Part shown: piece after piece, positions 5,601 through 63,711 of the stretch
Layout of the letters: every line of letters starts with the position of its first letter
How positions within the stretch are numbered: the stretch's first letter is position 1
Assembly (NCBI GenBank): GCA_016700095.1
Contig: CP065002.1
Span: 368,463 to 432,462 of the forward strand
Direction: 5' to 3'
DNA from: Candidatus Woesebacteria bacterium
GTDB taxonomy: Bacteria; Patescibacteriota; Microgenomatia; UBA8517
DNA: 64,000 bases
Translations under genes and position numbers: made by a program
The notes under the pieces: model-generated
Seen by the model: the letters and a program-made list of their open reading frames with translations, nothing else
Told to the model about the DNA's origin: nothing
The model's database searches: none

Positions 5601-8600
5601 TGCCTGTGATATTAACATCACCCACATTGGCATTATCTGTAATGGTCATTAGATCATTACCCGAGGTATCTTCAAAGGTTAGAGTACCTGTTGTACTTTC
5701 AAACATCCTTACTCCATCAAAGAGTAAAAAGTTTGCATCAAGGTCAAGTGCTGTAACAATATCAGTATCACTTAAATCAATACCTGTTGTTATCCCTCCT
5801 GCTTCACTTACAAAGGAGAGACCAGTTGCTACTGCCGTATCCGTATCTGAATTATCAAGGACAAGTAGAGCTTCGGTTGCCCCACTACTTGCTGCATTAT
5901 CAATTACCAATCCGTTTTGAGTACCACTTGAGCTGGCATTGGTTAAAGTAAGGGTAGTGGAGTTGGCATTTGCTGTTCCACTAAGAGCCTGGTTTACTGC
6001 GAGTAAACTATCCGAATCAAGAGTAATTGTCAGGTCATCGGTTCCAGCCGGTGTAAACCCTACATTACCTGTAAAGGTAAAATCATAGTCCTGGTTAACA
6101 GCAACATCATCTGCATTAACGGTAATGCCATTACCTGCTCCAACGGTAAAGGTGGTATCACCATCTGCACCGACAAGGACATTATCTGCTCCACCTGTAA
6201 GGCCACTTCCTGCAACTGCGTCACCTAGTAGCCTTACTGTAAAGTCAAGGTTTTCATCACCATCATCACCGTTAGTTAGATTGGTTAGTATATTGCCATC
6301 ACTACTGGTGAACCTTAAGATGTTGGCATCCACAACAGAGTAGGTATCAGTATCATCATCGGCTATCGTCCAGGAAGAGAAAGCACTTACACTGGTTGTC
6401 CATCCGCAGTTGGTTTCAGAAACATCGCAGACCAAATCATCTCCCCAGTACAGATCTCCCGATGCACTTCCTGCTGAAGCTGCATTGAAGCCAAAGACAT
6501 TGTCAGTATCTGCATCACTGTTTAGGCCGAGGGTGGTTCCGTATACAGAAAGGGTTGAAGTAAAGACTCCCGAACCGTTTACGGTGAATAGATTGTCAGC
6601 AAATGAGAGAAGATCTAAATCTGAACTTAATCCAATATTTGTACCATCAACCGTTAAAGAATCAATATTTAACTGAGTTCCTGTTATAACCCCTGCTGTT
6701 GTGATAGTCGCATTTGTTCCACCGACAGTAAAAGAAGCGTTTGTAACGTCGAGGCCGTTTTCGGCATCTACGTTACCTGAAAAACTAACTTGACCGGTTG
6801 AATTAAAATCAAGCGCGCCTGTACCAAGCGTTGATAGTGTCAAAGCACCAAGATCAATACTTGTAGCACTATCAAGAGAAAGAGTATCCGACAGTTCAGT
6901 GAAATTTAAGATATCATCGGCGATTGTTACGTTGGCTTCGTTGGCAGGGGAAGCTGTGACTGAGAAATCGGATGAAAAATCTATAGTATCCACGTTTACA
7001 CCTACAGTGCTGTCATTGTTTTCTATATTGACGATTGCAAATGCTGCACCGGAATCAGTTGAACACTCCCATGAGTCGTTTGCCTCATTCCATTTTAGAA
7101 CTTCACCATTTGCACATCCTTGCAGTAATCCAATTCCTCCGGCAAATACTTCCAGTCCAGATCCATTACTTACAGTTGAAGAAAGTCCATTTGTGGCTGT
7201 AATAGTTTGTATGGTCAACGCATTCGCACTAAGCGTCAAACCATCACCGGTGAAATCTGAAATAGTTTCCGAGTTAATAGTGATATCTCCTGCGATTTCT
7301 AGATTTCCACTATTATCTACGTCAAACAAATTATTACCCAGACTGTCCTCAAAAACGACCAGATCGCTTGATTGGGTACTATTGCCTTGTACAAGTAATT
7401 GAATTTCGTTAGAATCGCCGTCGATCGCTAATTTTGACGATAGGGAAGAATTGCCACCAATAATTACTTCGTCTGTTGTATTGTTTAAATAAATGAAACC
7501 GGTTTGTTGTGACCATTTTGAACTTCCGGCGCCAATCGCGGCATCCAAGTCATCAAGCACATCTTGGACATTTGTGCCTGAAGAATTAGCGAATTCAGCA
7601 AAAACTCCCACAAGTGAAGCGCCTGACATGTCTTCGTCTGATCCGGTATCGTTCAAACCGATTAAACCAATAGTTACATCTTGTCCTGAAGCAATTGTAA
7701 CTCCACCGACATCGGTGGTTATGCTGTCTGCAGTCAGGCTGTCTTGGATATCCACATTGCCTCCGGCGTTTATTGTTAACGTGGCTCCGTCGGCGGTAAT
7801 CATATCTCCATTTACCGCAAGATTACCGGTGATCGTCAAATCTCCGGCACTCTCATCAAAAAACAAAGCGGCGGTCGAATCGAGACCACCTATTGCAAAG
7901 TCATCTGTGAGACTTGTAAGGTAAGTAACTGTACCTGCGTCAGTAAAAAGGGAACTGGTTCCGGTTTTATCCTCTGCCCATGTAAATGTGCCTGTTGCGG
8001 AATTGTATGTTAGCACCTGATTGTCGGATGGGGTATTGGTTACCGACAGATGTCTGACAGTTATAGCTTCATCAGATATTTCGGATGATTCGACAGTATC
8101 ACCTATAACAGTTTCCAGAACATTATTAATTACTTGTAAGCCTGTACCTGTAAAATCGGCGATTGTATCTTGAGATAGCGTAAGTGAAGCTCCAATTTCT
8201 AACTCCCCAGAAACAAAAAAATCGCCGTTGGCGAGGTCTATTGTTGGAATTCCTGTACCTATAGTGACACCTCCACCTCCTGGATCGATAATTATGTCAC
8301 TAACCGATGTAATTGTATTGCCGGATAGATTCAATACTCCACCGATATCTAAGTTGCCATCAACACTGGCATCATTTTTTAAATTTGTTTTTACATAAAC
8401 ATTGAAAGACTGATCTGCGATAGATTGACTAGTCAAAGCTAGTACTTTGCTTTCTTTGTTTATGCTTTGTTTATCCATGCTTGCAATACGCACGGGGAAA
8501 ACCCTTGTCATTGTTTCGTTTATGTTTTTCTTTACCGCATTTGGAGTGATATGGCTTATTATTTTTATAGAGCTTAATGTAAGAAGTAATACTCCGGCTA

Positions 8601-8910
8601 AATATAACATTTTTTTAATCACTCTTTTTTGGTCAATTTGTAGGCTTGAATATATTTGAGGCGATGCAAGAGTTGACGTTCTTGAAGCCATTGGGATATA
8701 TGAATTAACAATTCGCAATTTTTTGTTCTTCTTTGGCTTAATTGATAAAAGCTGAGCTTTTGAATAGCGTCTATGTTTTCCTGAAGTACGGGTGGGAATA
8801 AGTATGTTTCGTTGTTCCCACCTCCTTAAAGTTTTTTGAGAAACTTTTAGAAACTTAGCGGCTTCTTGGATTGTTAAATCAGATGAAAATTTAGAATCGG
8901 GCAGTGTCAT
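1..8910 (-). CDS. Giant repetitive cell-surface protein (at least 2970 aa in window; C-terminal end lies beyond window start). N-terminal HTH_17/excisionase-MerR-like motif, one TM helix, then a G/T/S/D/N-rich beta-solenoid-like repeat region
   Basis: Hand reverse-translation from ATG at 8910..8908 gives MTLPDSKFSSDLTIQEAAKFLKVSQKTLRRWEQRNILIPTRTSGKHRRYSKAQLLSIKPKK..., then MLYLAGVLLLTLSSIKII (TM, Met at 8610..8608), then NKESKVLALTSQSIADQSFN... An in-frame stop lies upstream at 8940..8938. Spot checks at 1-60, 3001-3060, 4441-4500, 7021-7080 and 8161-8220 found no minus-frame stops. No minus ORF appears in the track, consistent with a run-off ORF. Confidence 0.75.
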   Translation of the reverse strand, partial: MTLPDSKFSSDLTIQEAAKFLKVSQKTLRRWEQRNILIPTRTSGKHRRYSKAQLLSIKPKKNKKLRIVNSYIPMASRTSTLASPQIYSSLQIDQKRVIKKMLYLAGVLLLTLSSIKIISHITPNAVKKNINETMTRVFPVRIASMDKQSINKESKVLALTSQSIADQSFNVYVKTNLKNDASVDGNLDIGGVLNLSGNTITSVSDIIIDPGGGGVTIGTGIPTIDLANGDFFVSGELEIGASLTLSQDTIADFTGTGLQVINNVLETVIGDTVESSEISDEAITVRHLSVTNTPSDNQVLTYNSATGTFTWAEDKTGTSSLFTDAGTVTYLTSLTDDFAIGGLDSTAALFFDESAGDLTITGNLAVNGDMITADGATLTINAGGNVDIQDSLTADSITTDVGGVTIASGQDVTIGLIGLNDTGSDEDMSGASLVGVFAEFANSSGTNVQDVLDDLDAAIGAGSSKWSQQTGFIYLNNTTDEVIIGGNSSLSSKLAIDGDSNEIQLLVQGNSTQSSDLVVFEDSLGNNLFDVDNSGNLEIAGDITINSETISDFTGDGLTLSANALTIQTITATNGLSSTVSNGSGLEVFAGGIGLLQGCANGEVLKWNEANDSWECSTDSGAAFAIVNIENNDSTVGVNVDTIDFSSDFSVTASPANEANVTIADDILNFTELSDTLSLDSATSIDLGALTLSTLGTGALDFNSTGQVSFSGNVDAENGLDVTNASFTVGGTNATITTAGVITGTQLNIDSLTVDGTNIGLSSDLDLLSFADNLFTVNGSGVFTSTLSVYGTTLGLNSDADTDNVFGFNAASAGSASGDLYWGDDLVCDVSETNCGWTTSVSAFSSWTIADDDTDTYSVVDANILRFTSSDGNILTNLTNGDDGDENLDFTVRLLGDAVAGSGLTGGADNVLVGADGDTTFTVGAGNGITVNADDVAVNQDYDFTFTGNVGFTPAGTDDLTITLDSDSLLAVNQALSGTANANSTTLTLTNASSSGTQNGLVIDNAASSGATEALLVLDNSDTDTAVATGLSFVSEAGGITTGIDLSDTDIVTALDLDANFLLFDGVRMFESTTGTLTFEDTSGNDLMTITDNANVGDVNITGNLSVDGTTLGLNDDADTDNVFGFNAASAGSASGDLYWGDDLVCDVSETNCGWTTSVSAFSSFTVAGDSGGGQEIADSNTLSIIGGTNGIDTVDSTVDTVTINLDTTEIGTTTFGSGSAITWTYNASGGVDTSLGFGDNTILATTNNFNFTGAIDIQGGNITLQNDETISNSINSEVSLADGTNTLTFDFDEDSATAIDLTTNGSVDLTFNPGGNVGIGTRTPSGDLHVVDSDTSNIIISTTASTGANYLGIEFHDSTGAKLAQFVSEPTDDTFHGKGSFLIDYNGEDFGGIFAIRRDPDTTDYTIFADADGNVGINNSNPEALFDIKGNEAEDATFILDADEGDDIADTWTLTSVATDNDLTFTNGTTEVLSLTSAGNMQVDGTFEAYGNTLGLNSDADTDNVFGFNAASAGSASGDLYWGDDLVCDVSETNCGWTTSVSAFSSWTIADDDTDTYSVVDANILRFTSSDGNILTNLTNGDDGDENLDFTVRLLGDAVAGSGLTGGADNVLVGADGDTTFTVGAGNGITVNADDVAVNQDYDFTFTGNVGFTPAGTDDLTITLDSDSLLAVNQALSGTANANSTTLTLTNASSSGTQNGLVIDNAASSGATEALLVLDNSDTDTAVATGLSFVSEAGGITTGIDLSDTDIVTALDLDANFLLFDGVRMFESTTGTLTFEDTSGNDLMTITDNANVGDVNITGNLSVDGTTLGLNDDADTDNVFSFNAASAGSASGDLYWGDDLVCDVSETNCGWTASSGSSKWSVNTTPTPDVTYLTETAYDLAIGGSDGEAPLFIDVSASALNLNPFGASAGNTGEVRFQELEANGDNYTGFKAPDVLAGNVIYTLPTADGGNQQVLSTNSNGVLSWIDVSAGSGGYTGWNIDGDDSDTRSIGSGETLIIQGGTNGINTDVSDTTDTITLNLDTTEIAGSTFGAGSDFTWTFNTSGATDPSLDFGDNDLDVNVALTTFSGNVAIDGNTLGLNSDADTDNVFSFNAASAGSASGDLYWGDDLVCDVSETNCGWTTSVSAFSSWTIADDDTDTYSVVDANILRFTSSDGNILTNLTNGDDGDENLDFTVRLLGDAVAGSGLTGGADNVLVGADGDTTFTVGAGNGITVNADDVAVNQDYDFTFTGNVGFTPAGTDDLTITLDSDSLLAVNQALSGTANANSTTLTLTNASSSGTQNGLVIDNAASSGATEALLVLDNSDTDTAVATGLSFVSEAGGITTGIDLSDTDIVTALDLDANFLLFDGVRMFESTTGTLTFEDTSGNDLMTITDNANVGDVNITGNLSVDGTTLGLNDDADTDNVFSFNAASAGSASGDLYWGDDLVCDVSETNCGWTTSVSAFSSWTIADDDTDTYSVVDANILRFTSSDGNILTNLTNGDDGDENLDFTVRLLGDAVAGSGLTGGADNVLVGADGDTTFTVGAGNGITVNADDVAVNQDYDFTFTGNVGFTPAGTDDLTITLDSDSLLAVNQALSGTANANSTTLTLTNASSSGTQNGLVIDNAASSGATEALLVLDNSDTDTAVATGLSFVSEAGGITTGIDLSDTDIVTALDLDANFLLFDGVRMFESTTGTLTFEDTSGNDLMTITDNANVGDVNITGNLSVDGTTLGLNDDADTDNVFSFNAASAGSASGDLYWGDDLVCDVSETNCGWTTSVSAFSSWTIADDDTDTYSVVDANILRFTSSDGNILTNLTNGDDGDENLDFTVRLLGDAVAGSGLTGGADNVLVGADGDTTFTVGAGNGITVNADDVAVNQDYDFTFTGNVGFTPAGTDDLTITLDSDSLLAVNQALSGTANANSTTLTLTNASSSGTQNGLVIDNAASSGATEALLVLDNSDTDTAVATGLSFVSEAGGITTGIDL
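3341..4440. repeat. Dispersed copy (about 1.15 units) of the 954-bp module inside the giant gene
   Basis: Offset 2715 from copy 1: 3296..3817 matches 638..1102 and 4022..4240 matches 353..571. Similarity starts at gtccatccgcagttgg (3341) and diverges after the ...SASLFRPRVFP-equivalent near 4440. Confidence 0.85.
5419..6545. repeat. Dispersed copy (about 1.15 units) of the 954-bp module inside the giant gene
   Basis: Offset 4818 from copy 1: the tail of 4892..5920 matches 638..1102 and 6125..6343 matches 353..571. It diverges near 6545. Confidence 0.85.
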
Positions 8911-9756
8911 GATAATTTTTATACTATGAGATAATATTTATTTTTGTTATTTATAATTAATAAAACTTAGACAAATATATGTATATATAGCTTTAAATGT
9001 CTATATTTATTAAGACAGATAAGTAAATTATTGTCAAGCCTAAAGTGTCTACTAAAAATAGGATAATATAAACCGCAAAATACATACAGAAAATACGTGA
9101 TGACATTTGATGTATTTAGTAAGTATTGGATGAGGTGTTTTTAAAGGTTTTTATCAAAAATACTACATCTAACCAATAATTTAGTGCTGACATATCTTAG
9201 AAATCAAATTAGAGAACACTAAGATAGTGCGTGAATTAAAAATGCATATATAATTATTATGTTAAAAATAGGCATAAAAGGAGAGGTTTATTAACAATTA
9301 ATTATATAAAACGCATAATATAAGCACAATAAACGCAGTTATTGCCAGACTTTATGTAATGCGGTAATTATATTGCAGGCACATTATTATTTATTTAGAT
9401 ATATATACCGCGGATATTGCAGTAATAATATATATCGTGAAATACTTCTCTGCCTCATACGGTAATTTGTATATACACGACATAATAAATAGAATATAGG
9501 ATATTATAAGGCTAATATTATAAATATTTTAGTATGCGGAAATATTATTTTATAGTATTGATTGAAAATACATCCCATCAAACATGTATTAGATATTTGA
9601 CCTATCGGTAAAACTATTTAACAATAGAGTAGGATTTAAGTTATGGGAAATTCAAAATATATAGGCCGATTTGTTTTTATTTCTTTTTGAGTTAGATATA
9701 TAAATACATTGCAAGGAAAAACAAAATGCAATAAACGACATTTTGTTTTAGTATGA

Positions 9757-32704: not shown

Positions 32705-33474
32705 TGCAGGGTCCAACCCTGCAGACACGTTATTAATCGATTGACAACTCTTTCGACAAAGCAGGTGGTTCAAGATCGTTCATGAAGTTTTGATACGTAT
32801 TGTTTGATTTAATTTCAGTGAGTTTGGATTTCGAGAATATAGATAACACAATCTCTGGTTTAATCCAACTTCTTTTGCTCATTCCCAGATAATCAGAACA
32901 TGAAGAGTGCCAATTCGAAATGTCGGTAACAATTCCACGAGGATTTAAATGAATATATTTGGTTAGGTGGAGCAAGTATATGTCATTTTCGACAAGTGAA
33001 GCTCGATAATTACTTTGAAATAAAGTACCAACACGACTATATTTTTTATTAAAATACATTGAGTATCTTGTGGTTATAGAATGCATGAATTTTTCCATCG
33101 AATTTCTTAATTCTTGTCTAATTAATAAATGAAAGTGATTGGGCATCAAACAATATGAGATTAAATCAATCTCTTTTTCAAAGTTTTGAGGAAGTCGTTT
33201 GGGCACATCAAAACCATCAATATGTTGATGATATGGGGGAGTTAATGCTTCGACAAGGAGACAAGTGAACTTTTTGTAATCACTCGGGTCTAAAAATATA
33301 CTTCTTTTTTCTACACCACGGTTGTATACATGGTAATAGCTGTGGTCAGCATAAACTTTGACTACATTTCTTCGCGGCATCTCTTTGGTACTTTCATGTT
33401 AAATCAATATGTTAAGTAGTGCAACATATTACGATGGGGTGCAGGGTCCAACCCTGGCAGGGTTGGACCCTGCA
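32705..33474 (-). mobile_element. REPtron-like unit: Y1 HUH transposase gene flanked by REP hairpins (single REP 3' of the gene, inverted REP doublet 5' of it)
   Basis: tgcagggtccaaccctgca at 32705..32723 (hairpin: stem gcagggt/accctgc, loop cca). Doublet tgcagggtccaaccctg + gcagggttggaccctgca at 33440..33474. Transposase CDS 32733..33380 lies in between. Confidence 0.7.
32733..33380 (-). CDS. Y1 HUH transposase, IS200/IS605 TnpA / REP-associated tyrosine transposase (RAYT)-like
   Basis: MPRRNVVKVYADHSYYHVYNRGVEKRSIFLDPSDYKKF...LISYCLMPNHFHLLIRQ (HuH motif)...FMHSITTRYSMYFNKKYSRVGTLFQSNYRASLVENDIYLLHLTKYIHLNP matches the Y1 transposase family pattern; 215 aa. Confidence 0.8.
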   Translation of the reverse strand: MPRRNVVKVYADHSYYHVYNRGVEKRSIFLDPSDYKKFTCLLVEALTPPYHQHIDGFDVPKRLPQNFEKEIDLISYCLMPNHFHLLIRQELRNSMEKFMHSITTRYSMYFNKKYSRVGTLFQSNYRASLVENDIYLLHLTKYIHLNPRGIVTDISNWHSSCSDYLGMSKRSWIKPEIVLSIFSKSKLTEIKSNNTYQNFMNDLEPPALSKELSID

Positions 33475-33988: not shown

Positions 33989-34634
33989 GTGATTGAAAGC
34001 GTTTAAAATATAAAATAATTTAATATCATATATAATTCCTAATGACACTTATTGAGCCAATTCCTTTAGCCAATAAAACACGGCTAGCAACAAGCAAACA
34101 AAACACAAGATCCCTCGACTGTCGCTTGAGATGACAATCTAGTAATGTTTGAGACGAAAAACCAAAAACACTCGAGATGATATAGGTTGTTATATTGACC
34201 GTTCCTTTTGTCATTTCGACCAGCTTCATTTTGTTATTCTGAGGTTTCCTTTTGTCATTTCGGCCACAAATGGAGAAACTTAATTACATAACTTCCATTA
34301 ATTGCAAAAACATTGCTTACCTTCGTTTTACCTGTGGGTTTACTTGTTCTTCCTTAGGTGGATGGGAATTGTGATTTACCTGTTTATATCTTTCTATTGG
34401 AATAATCCGACTTCCTTCGTGTCCGCCATCTTGTCGTTTAATAGGATTTTTGCCACGTTTATCACAATACAATGGTTGTCTTGCTAAATCTAAATCTGGT
34501 GTCATATAACCCATAATATCAATTTATGGGAAATAATCAATTCTTGATTGGCTTGTAAAGGTGTAATAAAATCAATTTTTGGTAGCTTATAATATATTTA
34601 ATATTAGTGAGTGAAACGGAGCATTGGTTTGCAT

Positions 34635-34668
34635 GCAGGGTCCAACCCTGCCAGGGTTGGACCCTGCA
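34635..34668. repeat. REP-A inverted doublet (tgcagggtccaaccctg c cagggttggaccctgca)
   Basis: Same 17-nt hairpin unit as at 32705 and 33440, in head-to-head orientation; lies between small ORFs in an intergenic region. Confidence 0.85.
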
Positions 34669-34767
34669 CCCGCACCCCCAGCTTGTATATTTTGTACACT
34701 ATGCGTAATTTGCCTAATTCGTCGTTTGTTTGTAAAATACTGTTTATAAGTGTGAGGAGGTGATTAT

Positions 34768-35115: not shown

Positions 35116-35826
35116 TCAATACCCCCCAAACTTATACGGGATTTTGTTAGCGACCCGTTTCATTTTTAAACAATGAAGCAGAGTGAGGATCGTGTATTGA
35201 CTCATTACCTTAATTACTCCTTCTTTCACAAATCTTCTATCCGAACCCTTGACGTAAGTTTTAAGTATCTTAAATTTGCCTTTTCTACCCAACCGTCGTA
35301 TAAACTCCCAGTCTTCGTATGCATTGTATGTCTCATCAAATCCACCGTGTTTAATTACATGGCTTTTCGTCGTGATGATACACATTCCGGCGCCTGAGGG
35401 TGCAAATTTTTGCGTCACAACAAAAATTGAATTTATAAAAGCAAAGCACAGTTTGATATCGGGGTGTTTTGAGTCCGCCCTGTAATTAGGGCAAGCGATA
35501 TGCAAATCGTGTTTATAAAATTGATGTAATGAATTTTCAATGAATTTTTCATTAATTCTGACATCTGCATCCATAAGAATAATAATTTCACCTGTTGATT
35601 GTGCAATTCCAAAATTCCTTTGGTGTACGACGCCCTTTTTGTGAATGTGGAATATTGGTTTTAGTTTGTGGGTGGTTACGACTTTCTTGGTTTTGTCTAC
35701 CGACTTGGCATCGACGACAATAACTTCATGGGGCAATAGTGTCTGGTTAGATAAATCATCAAGCAAGTTGCCAATATATTTTTCTTCATTCAAAGTGGGT
35801 ATTATGACTGAAATTTTGTGTTTCAT
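35116..35826 (-). CDS. Family 2 glycosyltransferase (CrtQ/CruC-like position in a carotenoid cluster)
   Basis: GT2 N-terminus KISVIIPTLNEEKYIGNLLDDL, VIVVDAKSVDKT and MDADV (DxD-type); overlaps the upstream prenyltransferase by 4 nt. Confidence 0.7.
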   Translation of the reverse strand: MKHKISVIIPTLNEEKYIGNLLDDLSNQTLLPHEVIVVDAKSVDKTKKVVTTHKLKPIFHIHKKGVVHQRNFGIAQSTGEIIILMDADVRINEKFIENSLHQFYKHDLHIACPNYRADSKHPDIKLCFAFINSIFVVTQKFAPSGAGMCIITTKSHVIKHGGFDETYNAYEDWEFIRRLGRKGKFKILKTYVKGSDRRFVKEGVIKVMSQYTILTLLHCLKMKRVANKIPYKFGGY

Positions 35827-36668
35827 AACAAATGCAGAGCGCTTACACTAAACAATAAGAATCCGACAATTAAATTTATGGCGGGGAAGTACCAATATAG
35901 TTTTATATAGTCTTTTTCACTTATCTTAAATGCAAGGAAAGCAATAGAAGGATACGTTAGGCTAACTAAGCTAAGTGTGACTGGCATATTTATATAAAAC
36001 AAAATGAAACTAGTAAGTGACCAGAATAAAACACACAAAATGATCGCGTTTTTTCTACCTAGAAATACAGCCGTTGTTTTTAATTGTGCATTTTTGTCTG
36101 CCTTGATGTCAGGAATTGCCGAGAATATATGCATAGCAAATGCCCAGAAAGAGGCTGCCAAAATTATTAGAAGTGGTGGATATGTATTTGTATTTTGGAA
36201 GTATCCGACAAGCCCCGGAGTGATATATAAAAAATTTGCACCAAAATCCAGAAACGGTCTTGCCTTTAGTCTAAATGGGGAAGCGGAATAAAGATAAGAA
36301 AGAGCTAGAAAAAGCGACAATGACATCATCGAAAGGAATGATGTTTGGATAATTAGTGTAACAATTCCAATCAAAAAACAGTACAAGGTAGCTCGAGAAA
36401 GTAATTTGTCTTTTTGGCTGGCGACAAATTCTTTGCCTTTCTTTTTTACCGAATATTTATCGGTATCCGAGTCGTATAAATCATTTATGCCATAGAGGAA
36501 TAAATTTGCGGGTAACGTAAAAAAAATAAATGTTAAAAGAAAAGTCAAACTTAGAAAATCAGCTTTGTTTGCGACAGATGTAAACCCCACAAGGTAAGTT
36601 CCCAGAAGATATGGATAAAAACGCGGACGAGAAATGTAGACTAACTTGCCGAATTTAGATTTTGCCAT
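35823..36668 (-). CDS. UbiA-family integral-membrane prenyltransferase (lycopene elongase / carotenoid-modifying type by context)
   Basis: Polytopic membrane protein with the aspartate-rich motif NDLYDSDTD (NDxxDxxxD); co-oriented and overlapping with crtB and GT2. Confidence 0.6.
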   Translation of the reverse strand: MAKSKFGKLVYISRPRFYPYLLGTYLVGFTSVANKADFLSLTFLLTFIFFTLPANLFLYGINDLYDSDTDKYSVKKKGKEFVASQKDKLLSRATLYCFLIGIVTLIIQTSFLSMMSLSLFLALSYLYSASPFRLKARPFLDFGANFLYITPGLVGYFQNTNTYPPLLIILAASFWAFAMHIFSAIPDIKADKNAQLKTTAVFLGRKNAIILCVLFWSLTSFILFYINMPVTLSLVSLTYPSIAFLAFKISEKDYIKLYWYFPAINLIVGFLLFSVSALHLL

Positions 36669-37629
36669 GTTTGATGGATACGTGTTTAATTCCGGCGCAC
36701 CAATAGCCGATTGCGGGTAACTGGCAAATAGTGTTTCTAATTAAACATAATATTACTTTAGAGGGTGACGGTTTTACTACTTTCTCAAAAACGATTAAAG
36801 GATTTTTGTAAATTACTTGTGCGGTCCAATCATACATATCTGATGATGTCATGATGGGAATAAGAAGCCGTGGTGGAATATAACGGTAACCTTCCTTTGC
36901 TTTGACCATCCATGTCTTGTAGATATCAATCTGCGCACGGATTAGGGTGACGAATTTTTGCTCGTCGGTAGTATTTGTAGGCCTAGTTAAATTACTAAGA
37001 CCGTATTTTTTTATTTCAGAAAGGGGAATGTAAATTCGCTTGAGTGAGTTATCAGTCGATACATCACGGATAATATTTAAATATTGATAAGCTCGTCCAA
37101 GCATTTTGGCCGATTCATGGCTAGATTGGGGTAGTGACATTATTTGTGCCATCATTAGACCGATTACTTCGGCTGAGCCGTACATATACTTTTTGATTTG
37201 AGGAAAGTCACTACACACGTTTCCATTAAAATCCGCTCTCATCGAATCAAGAAAAGCATCAACCCACCTCTTGTTGAAGTTTCTTCGTCGCGTGAGTTTA
37301 ATGAAATTGTCTATCACTAAGTCATTACAGATCTTCTGTGATTTGTAAGCTTTTTCAAATTTCTTTCTAAAGGAAGTAAAACCGTCTCTGTTTTGATTTT
37401 TACTATCAACAAAATTGTCGGCAATTCTTACAAAAGCATATAAATTAAATACATCTTCACGAACCGATTTGGGAAAAAATAAACTTGACCAATAATAAGT
37501 TACGCTTCCTTTTTTGAAAATACCCTTAATCCTTTTGTGTATCATATTTTTTAATTCTGTCGCGAACCAAGTGAGATGATACAATCGCCGGTGGAACTCC
37601 GATTCCGGGGACAGTGTTGGCTCCGGCAA
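36655..37629 (-). CDS. crtB: Phytoene/squalene synthase family (CrtB-like)
   Basis: Motif LYAFVRIADNFVDS (cf. YAFCRxADDxVD), and a second Asp-rich/conserved region (...YQYLNIIRDV...IYIP). The longest ORF overlaps crtI by about 100 nt, so the true start is probably the internal Met near 37545. Confidence 0.7.
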   Translation of the reverse strand: MPEPTLSPESEFHRRLYHLTWFATELKNMIHKRIKGIFKKGSVTYYWSSLFFPKSVREDVFNLYAFVRIADNFVDSKNQNRDGFTSFRKKFEKAYKSQKICNDLVIDNFIKLTRRRNFNKRWVDAFLDSMRADFNGNVCSDFPQIKKYMYGSAEVIGLMMAQIMSLPQSSHESAKMLGRAYQYLNIIRDVSTDNSLKRIYIPLSEIKKYGLSNLTRPTNTTDEQKFVTLIRAQIDIYKTWMVKAKEGYRYIPPRLLIPIMTSSDMYDWTAQVIYKNPLIVFEKVVKPSPSKVILCLIRNTICQLPAIGYWCAGIKHVSIKHGKI

Positions 37630-39022
37630 AGAATAGATTATTTAGCTTCTTGCTTTTGTTTGTTGGTCGAAATATGGAAGACTGGAAAAGAGTGTGTGCC
37701 AATCCACCAAGGGCATTTCCGCCAGTGCTATTGTACCTTGAAGTAAAATCACTTACAGAAAAGATTTTTTTGTAAACAATGTTTTTCGCAATGTTTGTGC
37801 CTATTTTGTCGTCTATAAAATTAACAATGTAATTTGAGTAACTTTCTTTCCACATCTTATTTTCTTCTAACCCCGCGGCAATTGGAACTAAGACCATCAG
37901 ATTTTCGTGTCCTTTGGGAGCTACCTTGTCATCGGTCGCCGAAGTTTTATTTATATAAAAACTTGGGTTAGTTGGCCAGGTGGGAGTATCAAATATTTCT
38001 CTAAAATGTGCCTTCCAGTCTGATCCGAAATACAAAGTGTGATGAATTAGCTGTGGAAGTTTTCCCTTAACGCCAAGATAGAGTAAAAAAGCTGAGGGAG
38101 TAAGTATTTTTTTATCCCAATATTTGTCAGAGTAGGTGCGATAATTTTCATTGTCGATTAGACTTTCCGTAAACTTGTAATCGGCATTTGAGATGACAAT
38201 GTCATAAGCGACTTTTTTACCGTTTGTTTTAATGTGTGTAACTAACCCTTCATGAGTAATGATTTCTGTGACAGGGGAGTTGTAATGGTAAGTTACATTG
38301 TATTTTTTGCCTAATTTCACTAGACTTCTGACAATTTCGTAAATTCCACCTTTCGGATAAAAAACCCCAAGACCAAAGTCGGCATGTGCCATCATGGAAA
38401 AAAGCGCAGGTGCGTTGTCGGGGGAGCATCCTAAAAACACGATGTTGTAAGTTAGTATTTGCTGTATTTTTGGATTCTTAAAATATTTTGCGATATGGTT
38501 TTTGATAGGGAGAAAGTTTTGTACACCAAATGACTTGTTTATCAAATCTTTACTGAAAAGATCAAGCGGATTATCAGCGTTTTTATAAAGTATCGAATTT
38601 AATGCAATTTCATACTTAATTTTTGAATCGGCTAAATATTCGTCAAACTTTTTTGCTGCCCCTTTTTCTAAATTCTCAAATATCTGTTTGGTTTTTCCGA
38701 TATTCTCGGACATGTCGTAAAATTCTTTGTTTTCAAAGTAGACGCGGTACTGCGGATCAAGCGGAGTGAGTTTGAGTACATCGGACAGTTTCAAGCCAAA
38801 CTCAGCGTAATATTTCTCAAAGACATCGGGCATCATAAACCAAGACGGACCCATGTCAAAAGTAAAGCCCTTTTCTTTGTACAAACTTGCTCTGCCGCCT
38901 AATTGTTCATTTTTTTCGTAGACGTCAACTTTGTAGCCATCTTTAGCTAGCAGTGCAGCTGAGGCTAGACCTCCAATTCCTGAACCGATTATTGCAATTG
39001 TTTTGTGTGTATTTTTCGACAT
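37526..39022 (-). CDS. crtI: Phytoene desaturase-family FAD-dependent oxidoreductase (CrtI-like)
   Basis: N-terminal FAD fold KTIAIIGSGIGGLASAALLAKDGYKVDVYEKNEQLGGRA, and a C-terminal GANTVPGIGVPPAIVSSHL typical of CrtI; 498 aa. Confidence 0.8.
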   Translation of the reverse strand: MSKNTHKTIAIIGSGIGGLASAALLAKDGYKVDVYEKNEQLGGRASLYKEKGFTFDMGPSWFMMPDVFEKYYAEFGLKLSDVLKLTPLDPQYRVYFENKEFYDMSENIGKTKQIFENLEKGAAKKFDEYLADSKIKYEIALNSILYKNADNPLDLFSKDLINKSFGVQNFLPIKNHIAKYFKNPKIQQILTYNIVFLGCSPDNAPALFSMMAHADFGLGVFYPKGGIYEIVRSLVKLGKKYNVTYHYNSPVTEIITHEGLVTHIKTNGKKVAYDIVISNADYKFTESLIDNENYRTYSDKYWDKKILTPSAFLLYLGVKGKLPQLIHHTLYFGSDWKAHFREIFDTPTWPTNPSFYINKTSATDDKVAPKGHENLMVLVPIAAGLEENKMWKESYSNYIVNFIDDKIGTNIAKNIVYKKIFSVSDFTSRYNSTGGNALGGLAHTLFQSSIFRPTNKSKKLNNLFFAGANTVPGIGVPPAIVSSHLVRDRIKKYDTQKD

Positions 39023-39208
39023 AGTTGCTAATTAAATTATTAATATATGTTACACCGAATGACCCGGACAAATAAACAGAGTTTGTAAGGTAGAGATGAC
39101 GTTTTAATATTGACCTTATTTTACTTCTCGCAAATTAATAGCATTATGGCTTAATTTACGATGTAAGTCTTTAATTTAAAAAATCCACGACGATTAAGCA
39201 GTGCGTAT

Positions 39209-39258
39209 TTCCAACCCCGGGGGTTGGAACAGCCTCAAAACAACCCCGGGGGTTGGAA
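39209..39258. repeat. REP-B element: palindrome ttccaaccccgggggttggaa + 11-nt spacer + caaccccgggggttggaa
   Basis: Near-perfect palindromic 21-mer (stem ttccaacccc/ggggttggaa) repeated after cagcctcaaaa. An almost identical 50-nt element is at 63662..63711. Its end lies 8 nt from the 3' end of tRNA-Pro. Confidence 0.85.
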
Positions 39259-39266
39259 ATTTTGTG

Positions 39267-39338
39267 TCGGGGACCCGGGAATCGAACCCGGAGTCTCTCG
39301 ATCCCGAACCGAGCGCTCTACCATTAAGCCAGTCCCCG
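39267..39338 (-). tRNA. tRNA-Pro (anticodon CGG)
   Basis: Manual fold of the reverse complement: acceptor CGGGGAC/GTCCCCG (C1:G72, A73, typical of bacterial tRNA-Pro); D stem GCTT/GAGC; anticodon stem CTCGG/TCGAG with loop TTCGGGA; T arm CCGGG-TTCGATT-CCCGG; 72 nt; CCA not encoded. Confidence 0.85.
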
Positions 39339-58806: not shown

Positions 58807-59760
58807 ATGTTTAGGAAAGTCGTATTATATACAGCCGCCCCGATATTTGTTGTTTTGTTTTTTTTCTTGTGTATACCTGTTAAAGCTCAGGATGTGACCA
58901 TTCCTCAGGCTAAATCTTTAAAAATTAGCCAGGCACCTGACCAAATCGAAACAAATGAGTTCGAGGCAACGAGTTCGGCGACACTAACGGTAACATCGGT
59001 ACCTATTCCTACTCCCAAACCCGACATAACGCAAAGAACCGAGGAAACAGCAAGCCCGTTTCATATAATTTTAGCTAATCAAAAACTGGGCAATATGTTT
59101 CCTTTTAATCCGGTTAAATATGCCATCCGTTCAGCGGTATCTGTTGGTGTACCGCCGAATACAATTGTTCTACTTTTATTGCTTCCTGCGGTTGCGGCTA
59201 TAATTGCCGGCGCGAGGCATTTGATCGGGATACGCGGATTTGGAATATTTTTGCCGGCAGCGCTTTCCGTTGTGTTTTTGGCAATCGGACCTGTTGCCGG
59301 AATCGGCTTGTTTTTAATTATTGTTGCGATATCGATGGGGGCGAGAATATTTTTGCATAAGTCGAAAATACAATTGCAATACTTACCGCGAATGGCGCTT
59401 ATTCTTTGGTTTGTCGTAATTGGCGTTTTGCTTGTTTTGTTTGCCGCTCCAATTCTAAGGCAACCCGATATAACAAGCGTTTCTATATTTCCGGTTTTGA
59501 TTCTCGTTCTTTTGGCTGAAGAATTTTCGAAAGTGCAATTGGGAAAAAGCGCCAGAACGGCTATAAACTTAACAACGGAAACTTTGATCCTTGCTTTGGT
59601 TTCTTTTATTTTTCTAACCTTAGAGGGTGTGAGAGCTTTTGCTTTGCTTAATCCCGAGATATTTTTGATATCGGTTGCCCTGATAGATATTCTCCTCGGG
59701 CGATTTGTGGGACTTAGATTTATTGAACTTTGGAGATTTAGGAAACTCATATCAGGATAG
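58807..59760 (+). CDS. Hypothetical polytopic membrane protein with a signal peptide
   Basis: MFRKVVLYTAAPIFVVLFFFLCIPVKAQD, then at least 6 hydrophobic helices; the minus ORF 59079..59750 is a low-complexity shadow. Confidence 0.5.
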   Translation: MFRKVVLYTAAPIFVVLFFFLCIPVKAQDVTIPQAKSLKISQAPDQIETNEFEATSSATLTVTSVPIPTPKPDITQRTEETASPFHIILANQKLGNMFPFNPVKYAIRSAVSVGVPPNTIVLLLLLPAVAAIIAGARHLIGIRGFGIFLPAALSVVFLAIGPVAGIGLFLIIVAISMGARIFLHKSKIQLQYLPRMALILWFVVIGVLLVLFAAPILRQPDITSVSIFPVLILVLLAEEFSKVQLGKSARTAINLTTETLILALVSFIFLTLEGVRAFALLNPEIFLISVALIDILLGRFVGLRFIELWRFRKLISG

Positions 59761-59950
59761 AATACAGATTAAAAATATAATATTAAAAATCAAATATCAA
59801 ATATTTATAATTTCTAAATTCTAATTTCTAATTAATCTAGTGAATGAACCAAATGCCAAATATCAAAAATATAATATTAAATATTAAAAAATTGACAGCA
59901 GAATTATTAATTGAAATCATAAATATTTTTGATGAAAATTTGTATTTAGC

Positions 59951-60328
59951 ATGGTGATTACGTCAAATGCAGGTAAGTTAAAGAAAAATTTTCAGGATCG
60001 TCTGTATAATTTTGTGTTGAAGCTAACCAATTTTATTGGTTCATTAAATGAGCGTGATATGATTACAAAAGTCATATCAAATCAATTAGCACGCAGCGGA
60101 ACAAGTATTCTGAGTAATTACGTTGAGGGAAAATCAGCAAGTAGCAGGAAAGATTATATAAATTACTTTAACCACTCTCTTAAAAGCGCAAATGAAAGCA
60201 AGATATGGATAAGCTTACTTAGAGATACAAATAAATGCGAGTCGAAAGAAGCTTTAATGTTAATGACAGAACTTGAAGAAATTTCAAAGATTTTTGCTTC
60301 AAGTATAATAACATTGAAAAGAAAATAA
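59951..60328 (+). CDS. Four-helix-bundle protein (23S rRNA-intervening-sequence protein family)
   Basis: ...NQLARSGTSILSNYVEGKSASSRKDYINYFNHSLKSANESKIWISLLRD matches the family pattern (DQL.RSA.SI.ANIAEG....S.KDF..FL.IA.GS..E...WL.L). Confidence 0.7.
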   Translation: MVITSNAGKLKKNFQDRLYNFVLKLTNFIGSLNERDMITKVISNQLARSGTSILSNYVEGKSASSRKDYINYFNHSLKSANESKIWISLLRDTNKCESKEALMLMTELEEISKIFASSIITLKRK

Positions 60329-60398
60329 GTGTATTTGATATATGATATATAGTTTTGAATTATTATTTGATCTTTGATATTTCATTTTTAATATTACC

Positions 60399-61724
60399 AT
60401 GATAAAAAGGTCTTCTATTTTAGGTTTAAACGCTAGAACAACATTATTTTCATATCCGTATAATTCGTTACGCGGAAAATCGATTGCTACATCAAAATTA
60501 AAAACAAAGCGTATTTTGGGAAAAGCGGGGATTCCCGTACCGGAAAGATATGCGATTTTCTCACAACCGCATAAGATTATTAACTATGATTGGTCAAAAC
60601 TTCCACATTCATTTGCATTAAAGCCCAACAAAGGTTTAGGGGGAGAAGGAATAATAATAGCTAAAAAGCGAACGAGCGACAAAACGGGATGGATTACAAC
60701 GGATAAAAAGAGGGTTACCCAGGAAGATTTGAAATTACATGTTCTTGATATTCTAGAGGGGGCATATAGTATACAAAACGTACCGGATTGGGCGTATATA
60801 GAGGAATTCGTAGGACGGCATAAAGCCTTTCGAAAGTATGCCTTTCGGGGAACTCCCGACATTCGTGTTATTGTTTTTAATAAAGTTCCGGTAATGGCAA
60901 TGCTTAGACTTCCAACGAAAGAATCCGGTGGAAGAGCAAACTTACATCAGGGAGCAATTGCGGTCGGAGTTGATATTGCAACAGGTATAACAACCAAAGC
61001 TTACTGGAAAGGTCATTTTATTAAATATAAACCGGGAACAAAGCGCAAACTGCATGGAATCAAAATTCCGAAATGGGATCAGATTCTTAAAATTGCGGTT
61101 ATGTGTCAGGATGTTGCGGGTCTTGGCTATATGGGAGCCGATTTGGTTCTGCATCCCAAAAAGGGGCCGATGGTTTTGGAGCTTAACTATCAACCGGGAT
61201 TACAAATACAGCTTGCCAATACGGCAGGTTTGAAAAAACGCCTCGAGAAAGTGGAAGATTTGGAAGTAAGAGACGCCGAGCATGGCGTAAAAATAGCCAA
61301 AGCGCTATTTGCTTCAGTTTTTGCCGATCGGGTAAAAGCAAGCGAGGGCATCAAAACAGTGAAAGCTATCGAAGAAATTAAAATCAAAGGGAGGCGTTTC
61401 AAAAAGCAGAGGAAAAAAGTATTAGCGAAACTTGATACCGGTGCTTGGAGAACGTCGATAAGTTTGTCACTTGCCAAAGAACTTGGTCTAATGACTGAAA
61501 CAAATATACTGTGGGACAAAAAAGTAAAAAGCTCACTTGGTGCTGAGCAGAGGCCTGTAATCGAACTAACATTCTTTCTTGCAGGCAAAAAAATTACAAC
61601 GCCAGCAAGTGTAGCAAAACGCATGGCTTTAAAGTATCCTGTTATAATTGGTAGAAAGAACTTGAAAGGAATGCTTGTTGATCCTGATATAATTGAACGC
61701 TTGAAGGAAATTAAAGAAGGATAA
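60399..61724 (+). CDS. ATP-grasp ligase (alpha-L-glutamate-ligase-related / RimK-like) fused to a C-terminal retropepsin-like (putative zinc-protease, DTGA) domain
   Basis: N-terminal ATP-grasp (...LGKAGIPVPERYAIF...ALKPNKGLGGEGIII...); C-terminal LAKLDTGAWRTSISLSLAKELGL...YPVIIGRKNLKGMLVDP, an aspartic-protease-like D-T-G-A motif. Confidence 0.65.
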   Translation: MIKRSSILGLNARTTLFSYPYNSLRGKSIATSKLKTKRILGKAGIPVPERYAIFSQPHKIINYDWSKLPHSFALKPNKGLGGEGIIIAKKRTSDKTGWITTDKKRVTQEDLKLHVLDILEGAYSIQNVPDWAYIEEFVGRHKAFRKYAFRGTPDIRVIVFNKVPVMAMLRLPTKESGGRANLHQGAIAVGVDIATGITTKAYWKGHFIKYKPGTKRKLHGIKIPKWDQILKIAVMCQDVAGLGYMGADLVLHPKKGPMVLELNYQPGLQIQLANTAGLKKRLEKVEDLEVRDAEHGVKIAKALFASVFADRVKASEGIKTVKAIEEIKIKGRRFKKQRKKVLAKLDTGAWRTSISLSLAKELGLMTETNILWDKKVKSSLGAEQRPVIELTFFLAGKKITTPASVAKRMALKYPVIIGRKNLKGMLVDPDIIERLKEIKEG

Positions 61725-61742
61725 ACAAACTTATTAATAATT

Positions 61743-62615
61743 ATGAAAGTTAAACTGATTACAACTTTGCAATCAATCGAGATGCAGAGACTAAAAGACG
61801 AAACGTGTGCGATGGGGCACGAATGTGACCTTGTTGATTTGAGCAAATTTACTTTTTCGATTCGAGACACTAAGTTGTCGATTGACAATCTGGGTAATCC
61901 TAATCCCGATGTGGTTGTCGTTAAAGGAGTGACAGTCAACAAAGCTCCGATTGTTGCTTTAATTCACGACTACAGAAAACGAGGAATAAAAGTATTCGAC
62001 AACAACTATTGTGAGCATCAATACACAATAAATAAGGTAACCGATCTAATTAAATTATCTTTGAATAATGTTCCTATACCCGATACTTTCCATTGTCACG
62101 ACTTTGATGAGTTTTACCGAGCATGCGAAATAGTGGGTTATCCGGCGATTGTTAAATTAGTTGGAGCCGGAAAGGGCGCCGGTGTTTTTAAGGCCGATAA
62201 TAAGGAAAGGTTGGCGGAAATCATTTCAAACGCACAAAACGACATGCTTAAATCAGCCTCAAGATTTATCGTCCAGCAATATATTCCTTACGAACACGAT
62301 TTGCGAGTCCTTATTATTGGCGAAAAATTATTTGTGATGAAGCGAATTCCGGGCGAAGGTGAATTTCGTGCTAATTTTTCACTCGGTGGATCGGTTGAAA
62401 CTTTCGAACTTGACGACGAGGGAAAGGAACTGGCGAAGCGAGGTTTGGCTGCGGTTGATATGTCTGTCGCCGGAGTAGATTTACTTATAACCAAAGACAA
62501 CAAGCGTTACGTCTTGGAGGTTAACCATACCCCCGGATTTGTCGGAATGGAAAAGGCAACGGGTGAAAACATTGCACGAATTTACATGGAGCATGCGATT
62601 GGTAATGCATATTAA
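61743..62615 (+). CDS. RimK-like ATP-grasp ligase, paralog 1
   Basis: GYPAIVKLVGAGKGAGVFKA...DLRVLIIGEKLFVMKRIPGEGEFRANFSLGGSVE...VDLLITKDNKRYVLEVNHTPGF. Confidence 0.75.
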   Translation: MKVKLITTLQSIEMQRLKDETCAMGHECDLVDLSKFTFSIRDTKLSIDNLGNPNPDVVVVKGVTVNKAPIVALIHDYRKRGIKVFDNNYCEHQYTINKVTDLIKLSLNNVPIPDTFHCHDFDEFYRACEIVGYPAIVKLVGAGKGAGVFKADNKERLAEIISNAQNDMLKSASRFIVQQYIPYEHDLRVLIIGEKLFVMKRIPGEGEFRANFSLGGSVETFELDDEGKELAKRGLAAVDMSVAGVDLLITKDNKRYVLEVNHTPGFVGMEKATGENIARIYMEHAIGNAY

Positions 62616-62620
62616 GTATT

Positions 62621-62726
62621 TGGTAGTTGGTAGATGGTAGATAGTAGATGGTAGTAGATAGTAGATGGTAGATGGTAGATGGTAGATGGTAGATGGTAGA
62701 TAGTAGATGGTAGATGGTAGGTAGGT
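62621..62726. repeat. Imperfect heptanucleotide microsatellite (TGGTAGA/TAGTAGA)n, about 15 units
   Basis: tggtagttggtagatggtagatagtagatggtagtagatagtagatggtagatggtagatggtagatggtagatagtagatggtagatggtaggtagg. It begins 6 nt after the stop of 61743..62615 and ends 40 nt before the ATG of 62767. Confidence 0.9.
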
Positions 62727-62766
62727 TCAAGTATTAAGTAATTAGTCCTTAGTCATTTGCAAATTT

Positions 62767-63657
62767 ATGAAAATTTTAATCGCAGGATTAGTTAATAATT
62801 CACAACTAACACGTCTTCAGGAAGAAGGGGAAAAACGCGGTCATCAAGTTGATGGATGTTATTCTACTGACTTAATACTTAATGCGCAAAACGACGAATT
62901 CAAAGTTCATTTAATCGGTAAAAATATTACTTCGTATGACCTTATCTATTTGTGGGCGGTAAGCAAGCGTCGCTGGGAATGGTACACGGCTTGTTATTAT
63001 TTATCTCAACAGGGAAAAAAAGTAATAAACGCCAAAGTGGTTGATCCTTCCTATATATACTATCTTTCACCAGCGATGGATTATCTGAGGCAAACAGAGA
63101 ATGCTATTCCCTTTCCCAAATCAGCAATTTTATTGACGGAATCTGCGGTTGATGAGATTGCGGGACAGTTCGAATTTCCCGTTATAGTAAAAACCGCTTC
63201 AGGCAGGCAGGGGAAAGGTGTGTTTAAAGCAGACTCTCCTGAAAAAGTAAAAGAAATTATCGGCAATCTAAAAAACGTGTCGATGTCGTTTGTTGTTCGG
63301 GAATTCATTCCAAACGATGGAGATATACGTGTTTTTACAATTGGATACAAAGCACTTGGAGCAATGAAGCGAACACCACAGAAGGCGGGGGAATTTCGAA
63401 GTAATATAAGCCAGGGAGGAATTGGAACTAAGTTTAACCTGGATAATTACCCGGAAATAAGATTATTGGCCGAGAAGTTAAGTAAAGTAACCAAGACAGA
63501 AATTGCAGGTGTCGACATCATGTTGCATCAAAACAGTCAAAAACCGTATGTACTTGAAATTAATCCTGGTCCGCAGTTTAGTGGATTTGAAAAGTATACA
63601 AACATAAATGCAGCAGAAGAAATTATTAAGTATTTTGAAGAGATTGTAGCAAAGTAA
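62767..63657 (+). CDS. RimK-like ATP-grasp ligase, paralog 2
   Basis: FEFPVIVKTASGRQGKGVFKA...DIRVFTIGYKALGAMKRTPQKAGEFRSNISQGG...VDIMLHQNSQKPYVLEINPGPQF. Confidence 0.75.
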   Translation: MKILIAGLVNNSQLTRLQEEGEKRGHQVDGCYSTDLILNAQNDEFKVHLIGKNITSYDLIYLWAVSKRRWEWYTACYYLSQQGKKVINAKVVDPSYIYYLSPAMDYLRQTENAIPFPKSAILLTESAVDEIAGQFEFPVIVKTASGRQGKGVFKADSPEKVKEIIGNLKNVSMSFVVREFIPNDGDIRVFTIGYKALGAMKRTPQKAGEFRSNISQGGIGTKFNLDNYPEIRLLAEKLSKVTKTEIAGVDIMLHQNSQKPYVLEINPGPQFSGFEKYTNINAAEEIIKYFEEIVAK

Positions 63658-63661
63658 GTAA

Positions 63662-63711
63662 TTCCAACCCCGGGGGTTGGAATAGCCTCAAAACAACCCC
63701 GGGGGTTGGAA
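63662..63711. repeat. REP-B element (ttccaaccccgggggttggaa + tagcctcaaaa + caaccccgggggttggaa)
   Basis: 49/50 identical to the element at 39209..39258. Starts 5 nt after the stop of 62767..63657 and lies 54 nt upstream of a Y1 transposase start. Confidence 0.85.

Follow-up and report, generated by a model that had tools for sequence, protein, structure and literature searches.

A four-gene operon of a Candidatus Woesebacteria genome with predicted functions in the synthesis of a glycosylated bacterioruberin-type carotenoid

The closest described counterparts of the gene cluster considered here are the crtD (c0507)-lyeJ (c0506)-cruF (c0505) genes of the haloarchaeal bacterioruberin cluster, known from Haloarcula japonica and Halobacterium salinarum. 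The Haloarcula japonica desaturase C0507 was found by gene disruption and complementation to possess both CrtI and CrtD activity (Yatsunami et al., 2024, PMC11946383). The genes lyeJ, crtD and cruF have also been reported in Patescibacteria of Lake Baikal, for which a membrane role was proposed (Haro-Moreno et al., 2023, PMC9948471). A further point of comparison is provided by the actinobacterial C50 clusters, e.g., those for decaprenoxanthin in Corynebacterium glutamicum, sarcinaxanthin in Micrococcus luteus (with crtX) and bacterioruberin glycosides in Arthrobacter agilis, which follow the same logic of a C40 backbone, a UbiA-type elongase and glycosylated terminal hydroxyls. These actinobacterial clusters use CrtEb-type elongases together with cyclases. 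Glycosylated bacterioruberins are known natural products of Arthrobacter agilis (PMC10991996, PMC9122864). The present analysis concerns a related cluster in the genome of Candidatus Woesebacteria, a member of the Candidate Phyla Radiation (CPR), within a window of 64,000 nt (contig CP065002.1, positions 368,463 to 432,462) that is the whole stretch of DNA analyzed and represents ~5% of the 1.27-Mb genome.

The cluster consists of four minus-strand open reading frames (ORFs) at 35116-39022, exactly where a first-pass annotation had placed a carotenoid-type cluster, and each gene has family matches of the kind expected: a crtI/crtD-type desaturase, crtB, a LyeJ-like UbiA prenyltransferase and a small glycosyltransferase of family 2 (GT2). 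At a probability of about 0.6, we read these genes as one operon for a glycosylated, acyclic carotenoid of the bacterioruberin series, and the cluster as an old resident of the genome rather than a recent island. The product would most likely be a bisanhydrobacterioruberin-type C50 (or C45) carotenoid carrying sugar on its C1 hydroxyls. The elongated and glycosylated carotenoid proposed at first sight thus remains the best reading, given a UbiA protein of lycopene elongase type and a GT2 clade that recurs at the same operon position. The locus resembles the haloarchaeal cluster in its NF058655 desaturase and PRK12875 elongase/hydratase families, in the adjacent and co-directional arrangement of these genes, and in the predicted chemistry up to bisanhydrobacterioruberin. 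It differs in that crtB lies inside the operon, only one desaturase is present, and a GT2 gene stands last in place of CruF; moreover, protein identity is only ~40%, and its host is no halophile but a CPR member. With the Lake Baikal Patescibacteria it shares a host at the level of phylum as well as lyeJ and crtD-type genes, but those genomes carry cruF, sometimes unlinked, with no glycosyltransferase described (PMC9948471), whereas the present locus is a compact operon with a GT2 gene and no CruF within 64 kb.

The four genes form a compact, translationally coupled operon (coordinates in Table 1). The GT2 start lies over the UbiA stop (4-nt overlap), crtB and the UbiA gene overlap by 14 nt, and crtI and crtB overlap by 20 nt if crtB begins at ATG 37545, or by 104 nt from the upstream TTG. 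ATG 37545 is probably the true start, because homolog alignments begin there and not at the TTG. The co-directional, overlapping arrangement noted at the outset is confirmed. No terminator-like site was found on the minus strand between 39022 and 35116, and a promoter scan upstream of the operon returned a weak sigma-70-like match at 39071-39042 (9/12) that was no better than those in shuffled sequences. Compared with their homologs, none of the four ORFs is truncated or disrupted, and catalytic motifs are conserved.

A comparative census placed this arrangement within a larger family. One genome per GTDB species was scanned with an alignment of four UbiA proteins, which yielded 80 loci, and gene content within 7 kb of the UbiA gene was assessed by tblastn with the window proteins and with the CruF and crtE of a relative (CrtI-like genes and crtB were counted at ≥36% identity). 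A CrtI-like gene was present in 69/80 loci, crtB in 55/80 and crtE, encoding a polyprenyl synthase, in 17/80; crtI-crtB-(crtE)-UbiA is a conserved core. The hydratase gene CruF (PF04240) accompanied the UbiA gene in 45/80 loci and a GT2 gene stood directly downstream of it in 10/80, while 25/80 had neither. CruF and GT2 were never found together (0/80; hypergeometric P = 1.1e-4, without correction for relatedness). Both architectures recur among loci reached through CrtI and GT2 homologs, where the CruF architecture is exemplified by L001 (TetR-crtI-crtB-UbiA-CruF) and the GT2 architecture by L004 (crtI-crtB-UbiA-GT2) and, with crtE, by L007 (crtI-crtB-crtE-UbiA-GT2). L004 is the nearest relative by CrtI (60% identical) and has the same four-gene order as the window. 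The GT2 type is represented in genomes with the deposited names Saccharibacteria, Levyibacteriota, Daviesbacteria and Armatimonadota, as well as in several metagenome-assembled genomes (MAGs) with doubtful labels; the archaeal loci of the census are all of the CruF type. The core operon was found in several CPR lineages, and the genes had been published from Patescibacteria in 2023 (PMC9948471), so the initial view that pigment genes are unexpected in this lineage was overstated.

The census also contained, among loci L012-L088, crtI/D-crtB-LyeJ(-CruF) operons in genomes deposited as strictly anaerobic methanogens, namely Methanobacterium, Methanospirillum, Methanocalculus, Methanosalsum and Methanofastidiosa, in Asgard archaea (Thor-, Prometh- and Heimdallarchaeota) and in DPANN archaea (Woesearchaeota, Micrarchaeota). 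No description of this distribution was found in the open-access PubMed Central (PMC) or bioRxiv literature. The names of relatives are MAG titles as deposited. Many MAGs titled ‘uncultured Gammaproteobacteria/Pseudomonadales bacterium’ (L009, L010, L023, L053, L070, L080 and others) have GC contents of 34-47% and carry clusters whose greatest similarity is to those of CPR genomes; their labels may be wrong, and titles of this type were treated as unreliable.

The desaturase scored 632.4 bits against NF058655 (CrtID, bifunctional phytoene desaturase/3,4-desaturase; cutoff 640), a model on which the relative L001 scored 645.6 bits and the desaturase adjoining lyeJ in the haloarchaeal locus L088 scored 727.7 bits. 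It passed the broader CrtI family model TIGR02734 (446 bits, cutoff 238.1), matched PF01593 at 109 bits, and is 100% identical to QQS39346.1, a phytoene desaturase of Candidatus Woesebacteria. The protein is predicted to be of the haloarchaeal C0507 type, i.e., a phytoene desaturase and carotenoid 3,4-desaturase. Only one CrtI homolog is encoded in the window, and this single enzyme of the cluster would have to supply both activities; one enzyme could suffice for all desaturation steps because the C0507 type is bifunctional (PMC11946383).

The product of crtB matched PF00494 (SQS_PSY) at 164 bits (cutoff 26), and both DxxxD motifs, ADNFVD and RDVSTD, are readable in its translation. Its nearest solved structures are of the phytoene synthase (PSY)/CrtM class, and its identity to the crtB found between crtI and UbiA in 55 of the 80 loci is 40-49%. 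It is called a phytoene synthase because of this conserved operon position, since it passes no equivalog model of the kind that would set a C40 phytoene synthase apart from HpnD, HpnC or CrtM: among three CrtB models compared (NF042419, NF045921, NF045686) the best gave 93 bits against a cutoff of 500, and HpnD gave 107 against 278.6. As to the carotenoid identity of the cluster, squalene synthase or amine oxidase paralogs in a non-carotenoid context were not what was seen; the same core adjoins CruF in other genomes, including the haloarchaeal crtD-lyeJ-cruF loci.

The UbiA protein is predicted to be a LyeJ-like lycopene elongase/1,2-hydratase of C50 type. It passed NF009516/PRK12875 (262.2 bits, cutoff 205), a model that can be equated with the LyeJ family because the UbiA genes of haloarchaeal crtD-lyeJ-cruF loci match it: those of two such loci scored 368-375 bits, and that of Methanobacterium 340 bits. 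Against two other UbiA models it reached only 108 and 97 bits, far below its score on the LyeJ-type model, which sets it apart from the actinobacterial clusters; PF01040 (UbiA) was matched at 76 bits. Identity to the haloarchaeal UbiA proteins of the crtD-lyeJ-cruF arrangement is 39-42%. The Asp-rich motifs are invariant in the alignment (N62, D63, D66 and D70; D187 and D191), the NDLYDSDTD motif of the first-pass annotation is present, and hydropathy indicates multiple membrane-spanning segments. A desaturase is encoded in the same operon, and the usual position of CruF is held by GT2. A neighbor-joining (NJ) tree of UbiA proteins was star-like and uninformative.

The last gene of the operon encodes a putative carotenoid 1-O-glycosyltransferase. 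Its product matched PF00535 at 90.4 bits (cutoff 23.3) and has a DxD motif (D86, A87, D88) that is invariant in the alignment. Homologs lie directly downstream of a LyeJ-like gene at L004, L007/8, L020, L025, L040, L044, L046, L053, L061, L063, L075 and L091. In an NJ tree of 64 GT2s, 12/12 cluster-linked proteins that passed the length and score filters fell in one clade, with PSGAG, SDRRF and an invariant DAD as common motifs, and the 46 other GT2s that passed these filters, drawn from a metagenome scan seeded with GT2, fell outside it. The scan served as an outgroup and not as a test of association; it returned mostly generic GT2s (27-39% identity), 1/80 among the matches listed being in a carotenoid locus. 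A tblastn search of plasmids with GT2 gave three distant matches, 0 in carotenoid loci. Against TIGR04283, an arsenosugar-type glycosyltransferase family, it scored 122 bits, below the cutoff of 182, with cluster-linked relatives at 112-139 bits. Known carotenoid glycosyltransferases of the GT2 family, CruC, CruG and CrtQ, act on carotenoid hydroxyl or carboxyl groups, and the target of CruC is a 1'-hydroxy psi-end group, a tertiary alcohol of the kind predicted here. The window GT2 has no family-level match to these enzymes and is much shorter. Its link to carotenoids is good guilt by association, not proof.

The predicted pathway would begin with the condensation of two geranylgeranyl diphosphate (GGPP) molecules to phytoene by CrtB, a step suggested by its family and synteny. 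The CrtI/CrtD-type desaturase, from its orthology-level similarity to C0507, would convert phytoene to lycopene and later introduce the 3,4 (3',4') double bonds. Family membership suggests that the LyeJ-like UbiA enzyme would add a C5 unit from dimethylallyl diphosphate (DMAPP) at C2 (and C2') and hydrate C1. Together with the 3,4-desaturation that the CrtI/D enzyme would carry out, this could give C45 and C50 products up to bisanhydrobacterioruberin, with two tertiary hydroxyls. GT2 may then glycosylate the C1/C1' hydroxyl with a nucleotide sugar as donor, so that a mono- or diglycoside with polar termini results; for this last step, conserved gene order is the sole ground. Where the window has GT2, most relatives have the hydratase CruF, which would add two more hydroxyls, and CruF and GT2 may be alternative means of making the chain ends more polar.

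Several observations weigh against this reading. The desaturase falls 8 bits short of the NF058655 equivalog cutoff, and CrtB passes no equivalog model, which leaves the chain length of its product (C40 rather than C30) to be judged from context. A relative's CruF had no tblastn match in the window; CruF may be encoded elsewhere in the genome, as in a Saccharibacteria genome from Lake Baikal (PMC9948471). No polyprenyl synthase (GGPP synthase) gene and no gene of the methylerythritol phosphate (MEP) or mevalonate (MVA) pathway was found in the window. CruG (NF045692), the sole carotenoid glycosyltransferase model among the matches of GT2, aligns with its N-terminal 58 residues only (E 6.6e-10, 38.5 bits; cutoff 600), and GT2 has no predicted transmembrane helix. 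The GT2 clade is not strictly tied to the carotenoid cluster, because it also holds a Rubrobacter-like subclade (L005, L089, L090, L092, L093) of Rubrobacter taiwanensis and soil contigs, GC-rich at 0.59-0.67, whose genes do not adjoin carotenoid genes. Finally, the NJ trees are poorly resolved.

These points bear most directly on the possibility, doubtful but the most serious of the alternatives, that the first three genes direct synthesis of a bacterioruberin-series carotenoid while GT2 is merely co-transcribed and acts on a cell-envelope glycan or polyprenyl phosphate, in which case synthesis would end at bisanhydrobacterioruberin without sugar, or at bacterioruberin should CruF lie elsewhere in the genome. 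GT2s of similar closeness (38-40% identity, 143-186 bits) are encoded apart from carotenoid genes in Rubrobacter and in the high-GC soil contigs, the closest curated family (TIGR04283) is non-carotenoid, GT2 lacks a membrane helix, and cruF can sit far from lyeJ in CPR genomes (PMC9948471). However, GT2 immediately follows the gene of the LyeJ-like enzyme in no fewer than 13 independent loci of several phyla, it never occurs with CruF within 7 kb, its cluster-linked copies are monophyletic, and its 4-nt overlap ties it to the UbiA stop. An unlinked carotenoid glycosyltransferase is also plausible in Rubrobacter, which is a bacterioruberin producer.

A second alternative, improbable in our estimation, is that the operon is a non-functional remnant in a reduced genome unable to supply GGPP or DMAPP. 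The crtE of a relative had no tblastn match in the window, and annotation of ~40 of its ORFs with Pfam and NCBIfam revealed no isoprenoid, rhodopsin or retinal genes, whereas crtE lies inside the locus in 17 of the 80 relatives. Against decay of the operon stand its four full-length ORFs with their conserved catalytic motifs, and the small fraction of the genome that the window represents. In addition, bacteria making peptidoglycan need undecaprenyl phosphate and hence isopentenyl diphosphate (IPP).

Table 1. Positions of the operon genes and of neighboring features in the window.
Feature	Position	Strand	Remarks
crtI/crtD-type FAD desaturase	37526..39022	-	498 aa; first operon gene; TIGR02734, NF058655 and PF01593 matches
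crtB, phytoene synthase type (head-to-head prenyl diphosphate synthase)	36655..37545	-	296 aa from ATG 37545; PF00494
crtB ORF, open up to TTG 37629	36655-37629	-	324 aa from TTG
LyeJ-like UbiA prenyltransferase	35823..36668	-	281 aa; PF01040, NF009516/PRK12875
GT2 (GT-A) glycosyltransferase, small	35116..35826	-	236 aa; last operon gene; PF00535
Upstream intergenic region, presumed operon promoter region	39023..39199	-	5' of desaturase gene
REP-B pair, 2 x CCAACCCCGGGGGTTGG	39200..39258	.	directly 3' of tRNA-Pro; hairpin and T-run
tRNA-Pro	39266-39338
REP-A palindrome	34634..34671	.	445 nt downstream of GT2 stop; dispersed family
Y1/IS200-like transposase (RAYT)	32733-33380		PF01797, 49.8 bits

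The operon was at first thought to be bounded by repetitive extragenic palindromes (REPs) and tRNA-Pro in a manner compatible with transfer. The REP-A, REP-B and tRNA-Pro features are all real, but they are not specific boundaries of the cluster, as REPs recur across the window. REP-A (consensus TGCAGGGTCCAACCCTGsCAGGGTTGGACCCTGCA) or its half-sites occur at six places over 32.7-44.5 kb, the further ones being at 32706, 33441/33458, 40861, 44403 and 44439, and the window holds 8 matches versus 0 expected. REP-B has a second copy (63653-63711, 93% identical) behind another gene; because its GC hairpins and T-run recur there, the REP-B pair looks like a terminator-like element that neighbors the operon without being part of it. 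The transposase gene is flanked on both sides by REP-A (32706; 33441/33458), forming a unit of REP plus REP-associated tyrosine transposase (RAYT) in a CPR genome (32698-33474), and its product remains below the cutoff of the RAYT equivalog NF047646 (43 bits, cutoff 80).

The GC content of the cluster (0.35-0.375) and its GC at third codon positions (GC3, 0.32-0.38) lie within 1 SD of the other window genes (0.395 +/- 0.032 and 0.339 +/- 0.036). When the codon usage of the four genes is pooled, the cluster ranks among the more divergent of the window's four-gene blocks (JS 0.030), a divergence that may stem from the membrane protein and from the location on the opposite strand, given the strong GC skew of the window. 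A search at up to 3 mismatches gave no second copy of the 3' end of tRNA-Pro, a search for direct repeats across 31-41 kb was negative, no integrase occurs among the annotated neighbors, and none of 88 related loci shares flanking synteny with the window. In the CrtI tree, the window groups with L004, of the GT2 type, as sister to three CruF-type loci, and the whole tree conflicts with the taxonomy of the bacteria and archaea in it, so that lateral movement of the cluster family has taken place over evolutionary time. The window copy bears no mark of recent arrival as an island, and its limits are not set by the REPs. That the cluster was acquired horizontally as an island bounded by REPs and tRNA-Pro is the least probable of the alternatives: the cluster does adjoin the tRNA-Pro 3' end between REP copies, lacks shared flanking synteny and has divergent codon usage and a family history of lateral movement, but REPs are dispersed in intergenic regions and do not mobilize cargo, GC and GC3 are within 1 SD of the neighbors, neither a tRNA 3' end copy nor an integrase was found, and the sole nearby transposase, 1.7 kb off, is a RAYT that has REPs of its own.

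The remainder of the window is typical of CPR/Microgenomates, with gpmI, F-type ATPase subunits, leuS, argS, comEA, comEC, ndk, rsmI and mreB and many ORFs without a family match. The plus strand carries almost every gene; the carotenoid operon belongs to the few units on the minus strand. GC skew is strongly positive (+0.15 to +0.25) over most of the window and changes sign near 8 kb, at a giant minus-strand gene (1-8937) that runs off the window start and encodes at least 2979 aa. In this ORF a unit of 954 nt (318 aa) is repeated 5-7 times in tandem, many of the copies being 100% identical, and GC content is ~43% versus 38% elsewhere; its N-terminus has a helix-turn-helix (HTH)-like stretch, KTLRRWEQRNILIPTRTSGKHRRYS, and the plus-strand ORFs of 154 aa within 1-8937 are probably its shadows. 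At the other end, the block 58807-63657 comprises genes for a membrane protein (7TM_transglut), for a fusion of a sugar-transfer-associated ATP-grasp with a Zn-protease-like domain and for two RimK-like ATP-grasp proteins (61743-62615, 62767-63657), between whose genes lies a short, degenerate GTAGATG-like tandem repeat (62600-62735). The gene content of this block suggests a peptide- or poly-amino-acid-ligating system.

The carotenoid operon is most likely a modest variant of a pathway already reported in Patescibacteria, its part without found precedent being GT2 in place of CruF: neither a GT2-containing LyeJ operon of this architecture nor a gene named for bacterioruberin glycosylation was found in the open-access PMC or bioRxiv literature. 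GT2 is a testable candidate gene for bacterioruberin-type glycosylation, and the compounds are of biotechnological interest. Speculatively, the carotenoid may span and stiffen the membrane and act as an antioxidant in a bacterium that synthesizes little lipid itself. It is proposed, tentatively and with much less confidence than the operon assignment, that the GT2 clade comprises the glycosyltransferases for bacterioruberin-series carotenoids, that GT2-type and CruF-type operons represent two ways to cap a membrane-spanning C50 rod with polar groups, and that CPR bacteria, largely lipid scavengers, might make glycosylated C50 bolaamphiphiles as a structural membrane component. If the operon assignment is correct, a lineage of minimal biosynthesis would maintain a complete pathway of its own for a C50 pigment and membrane lipid with polar caps, which would bear on how ultra-small episymbionts stabilize membranes built of scavenged lipids. 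More broadly, the presence of the core operon in DPANN, Asgard archaea and anaerobic methanogens suggests that ‘haloarchaeal’ carotenoids are far more widespread than the searched literature indicates.

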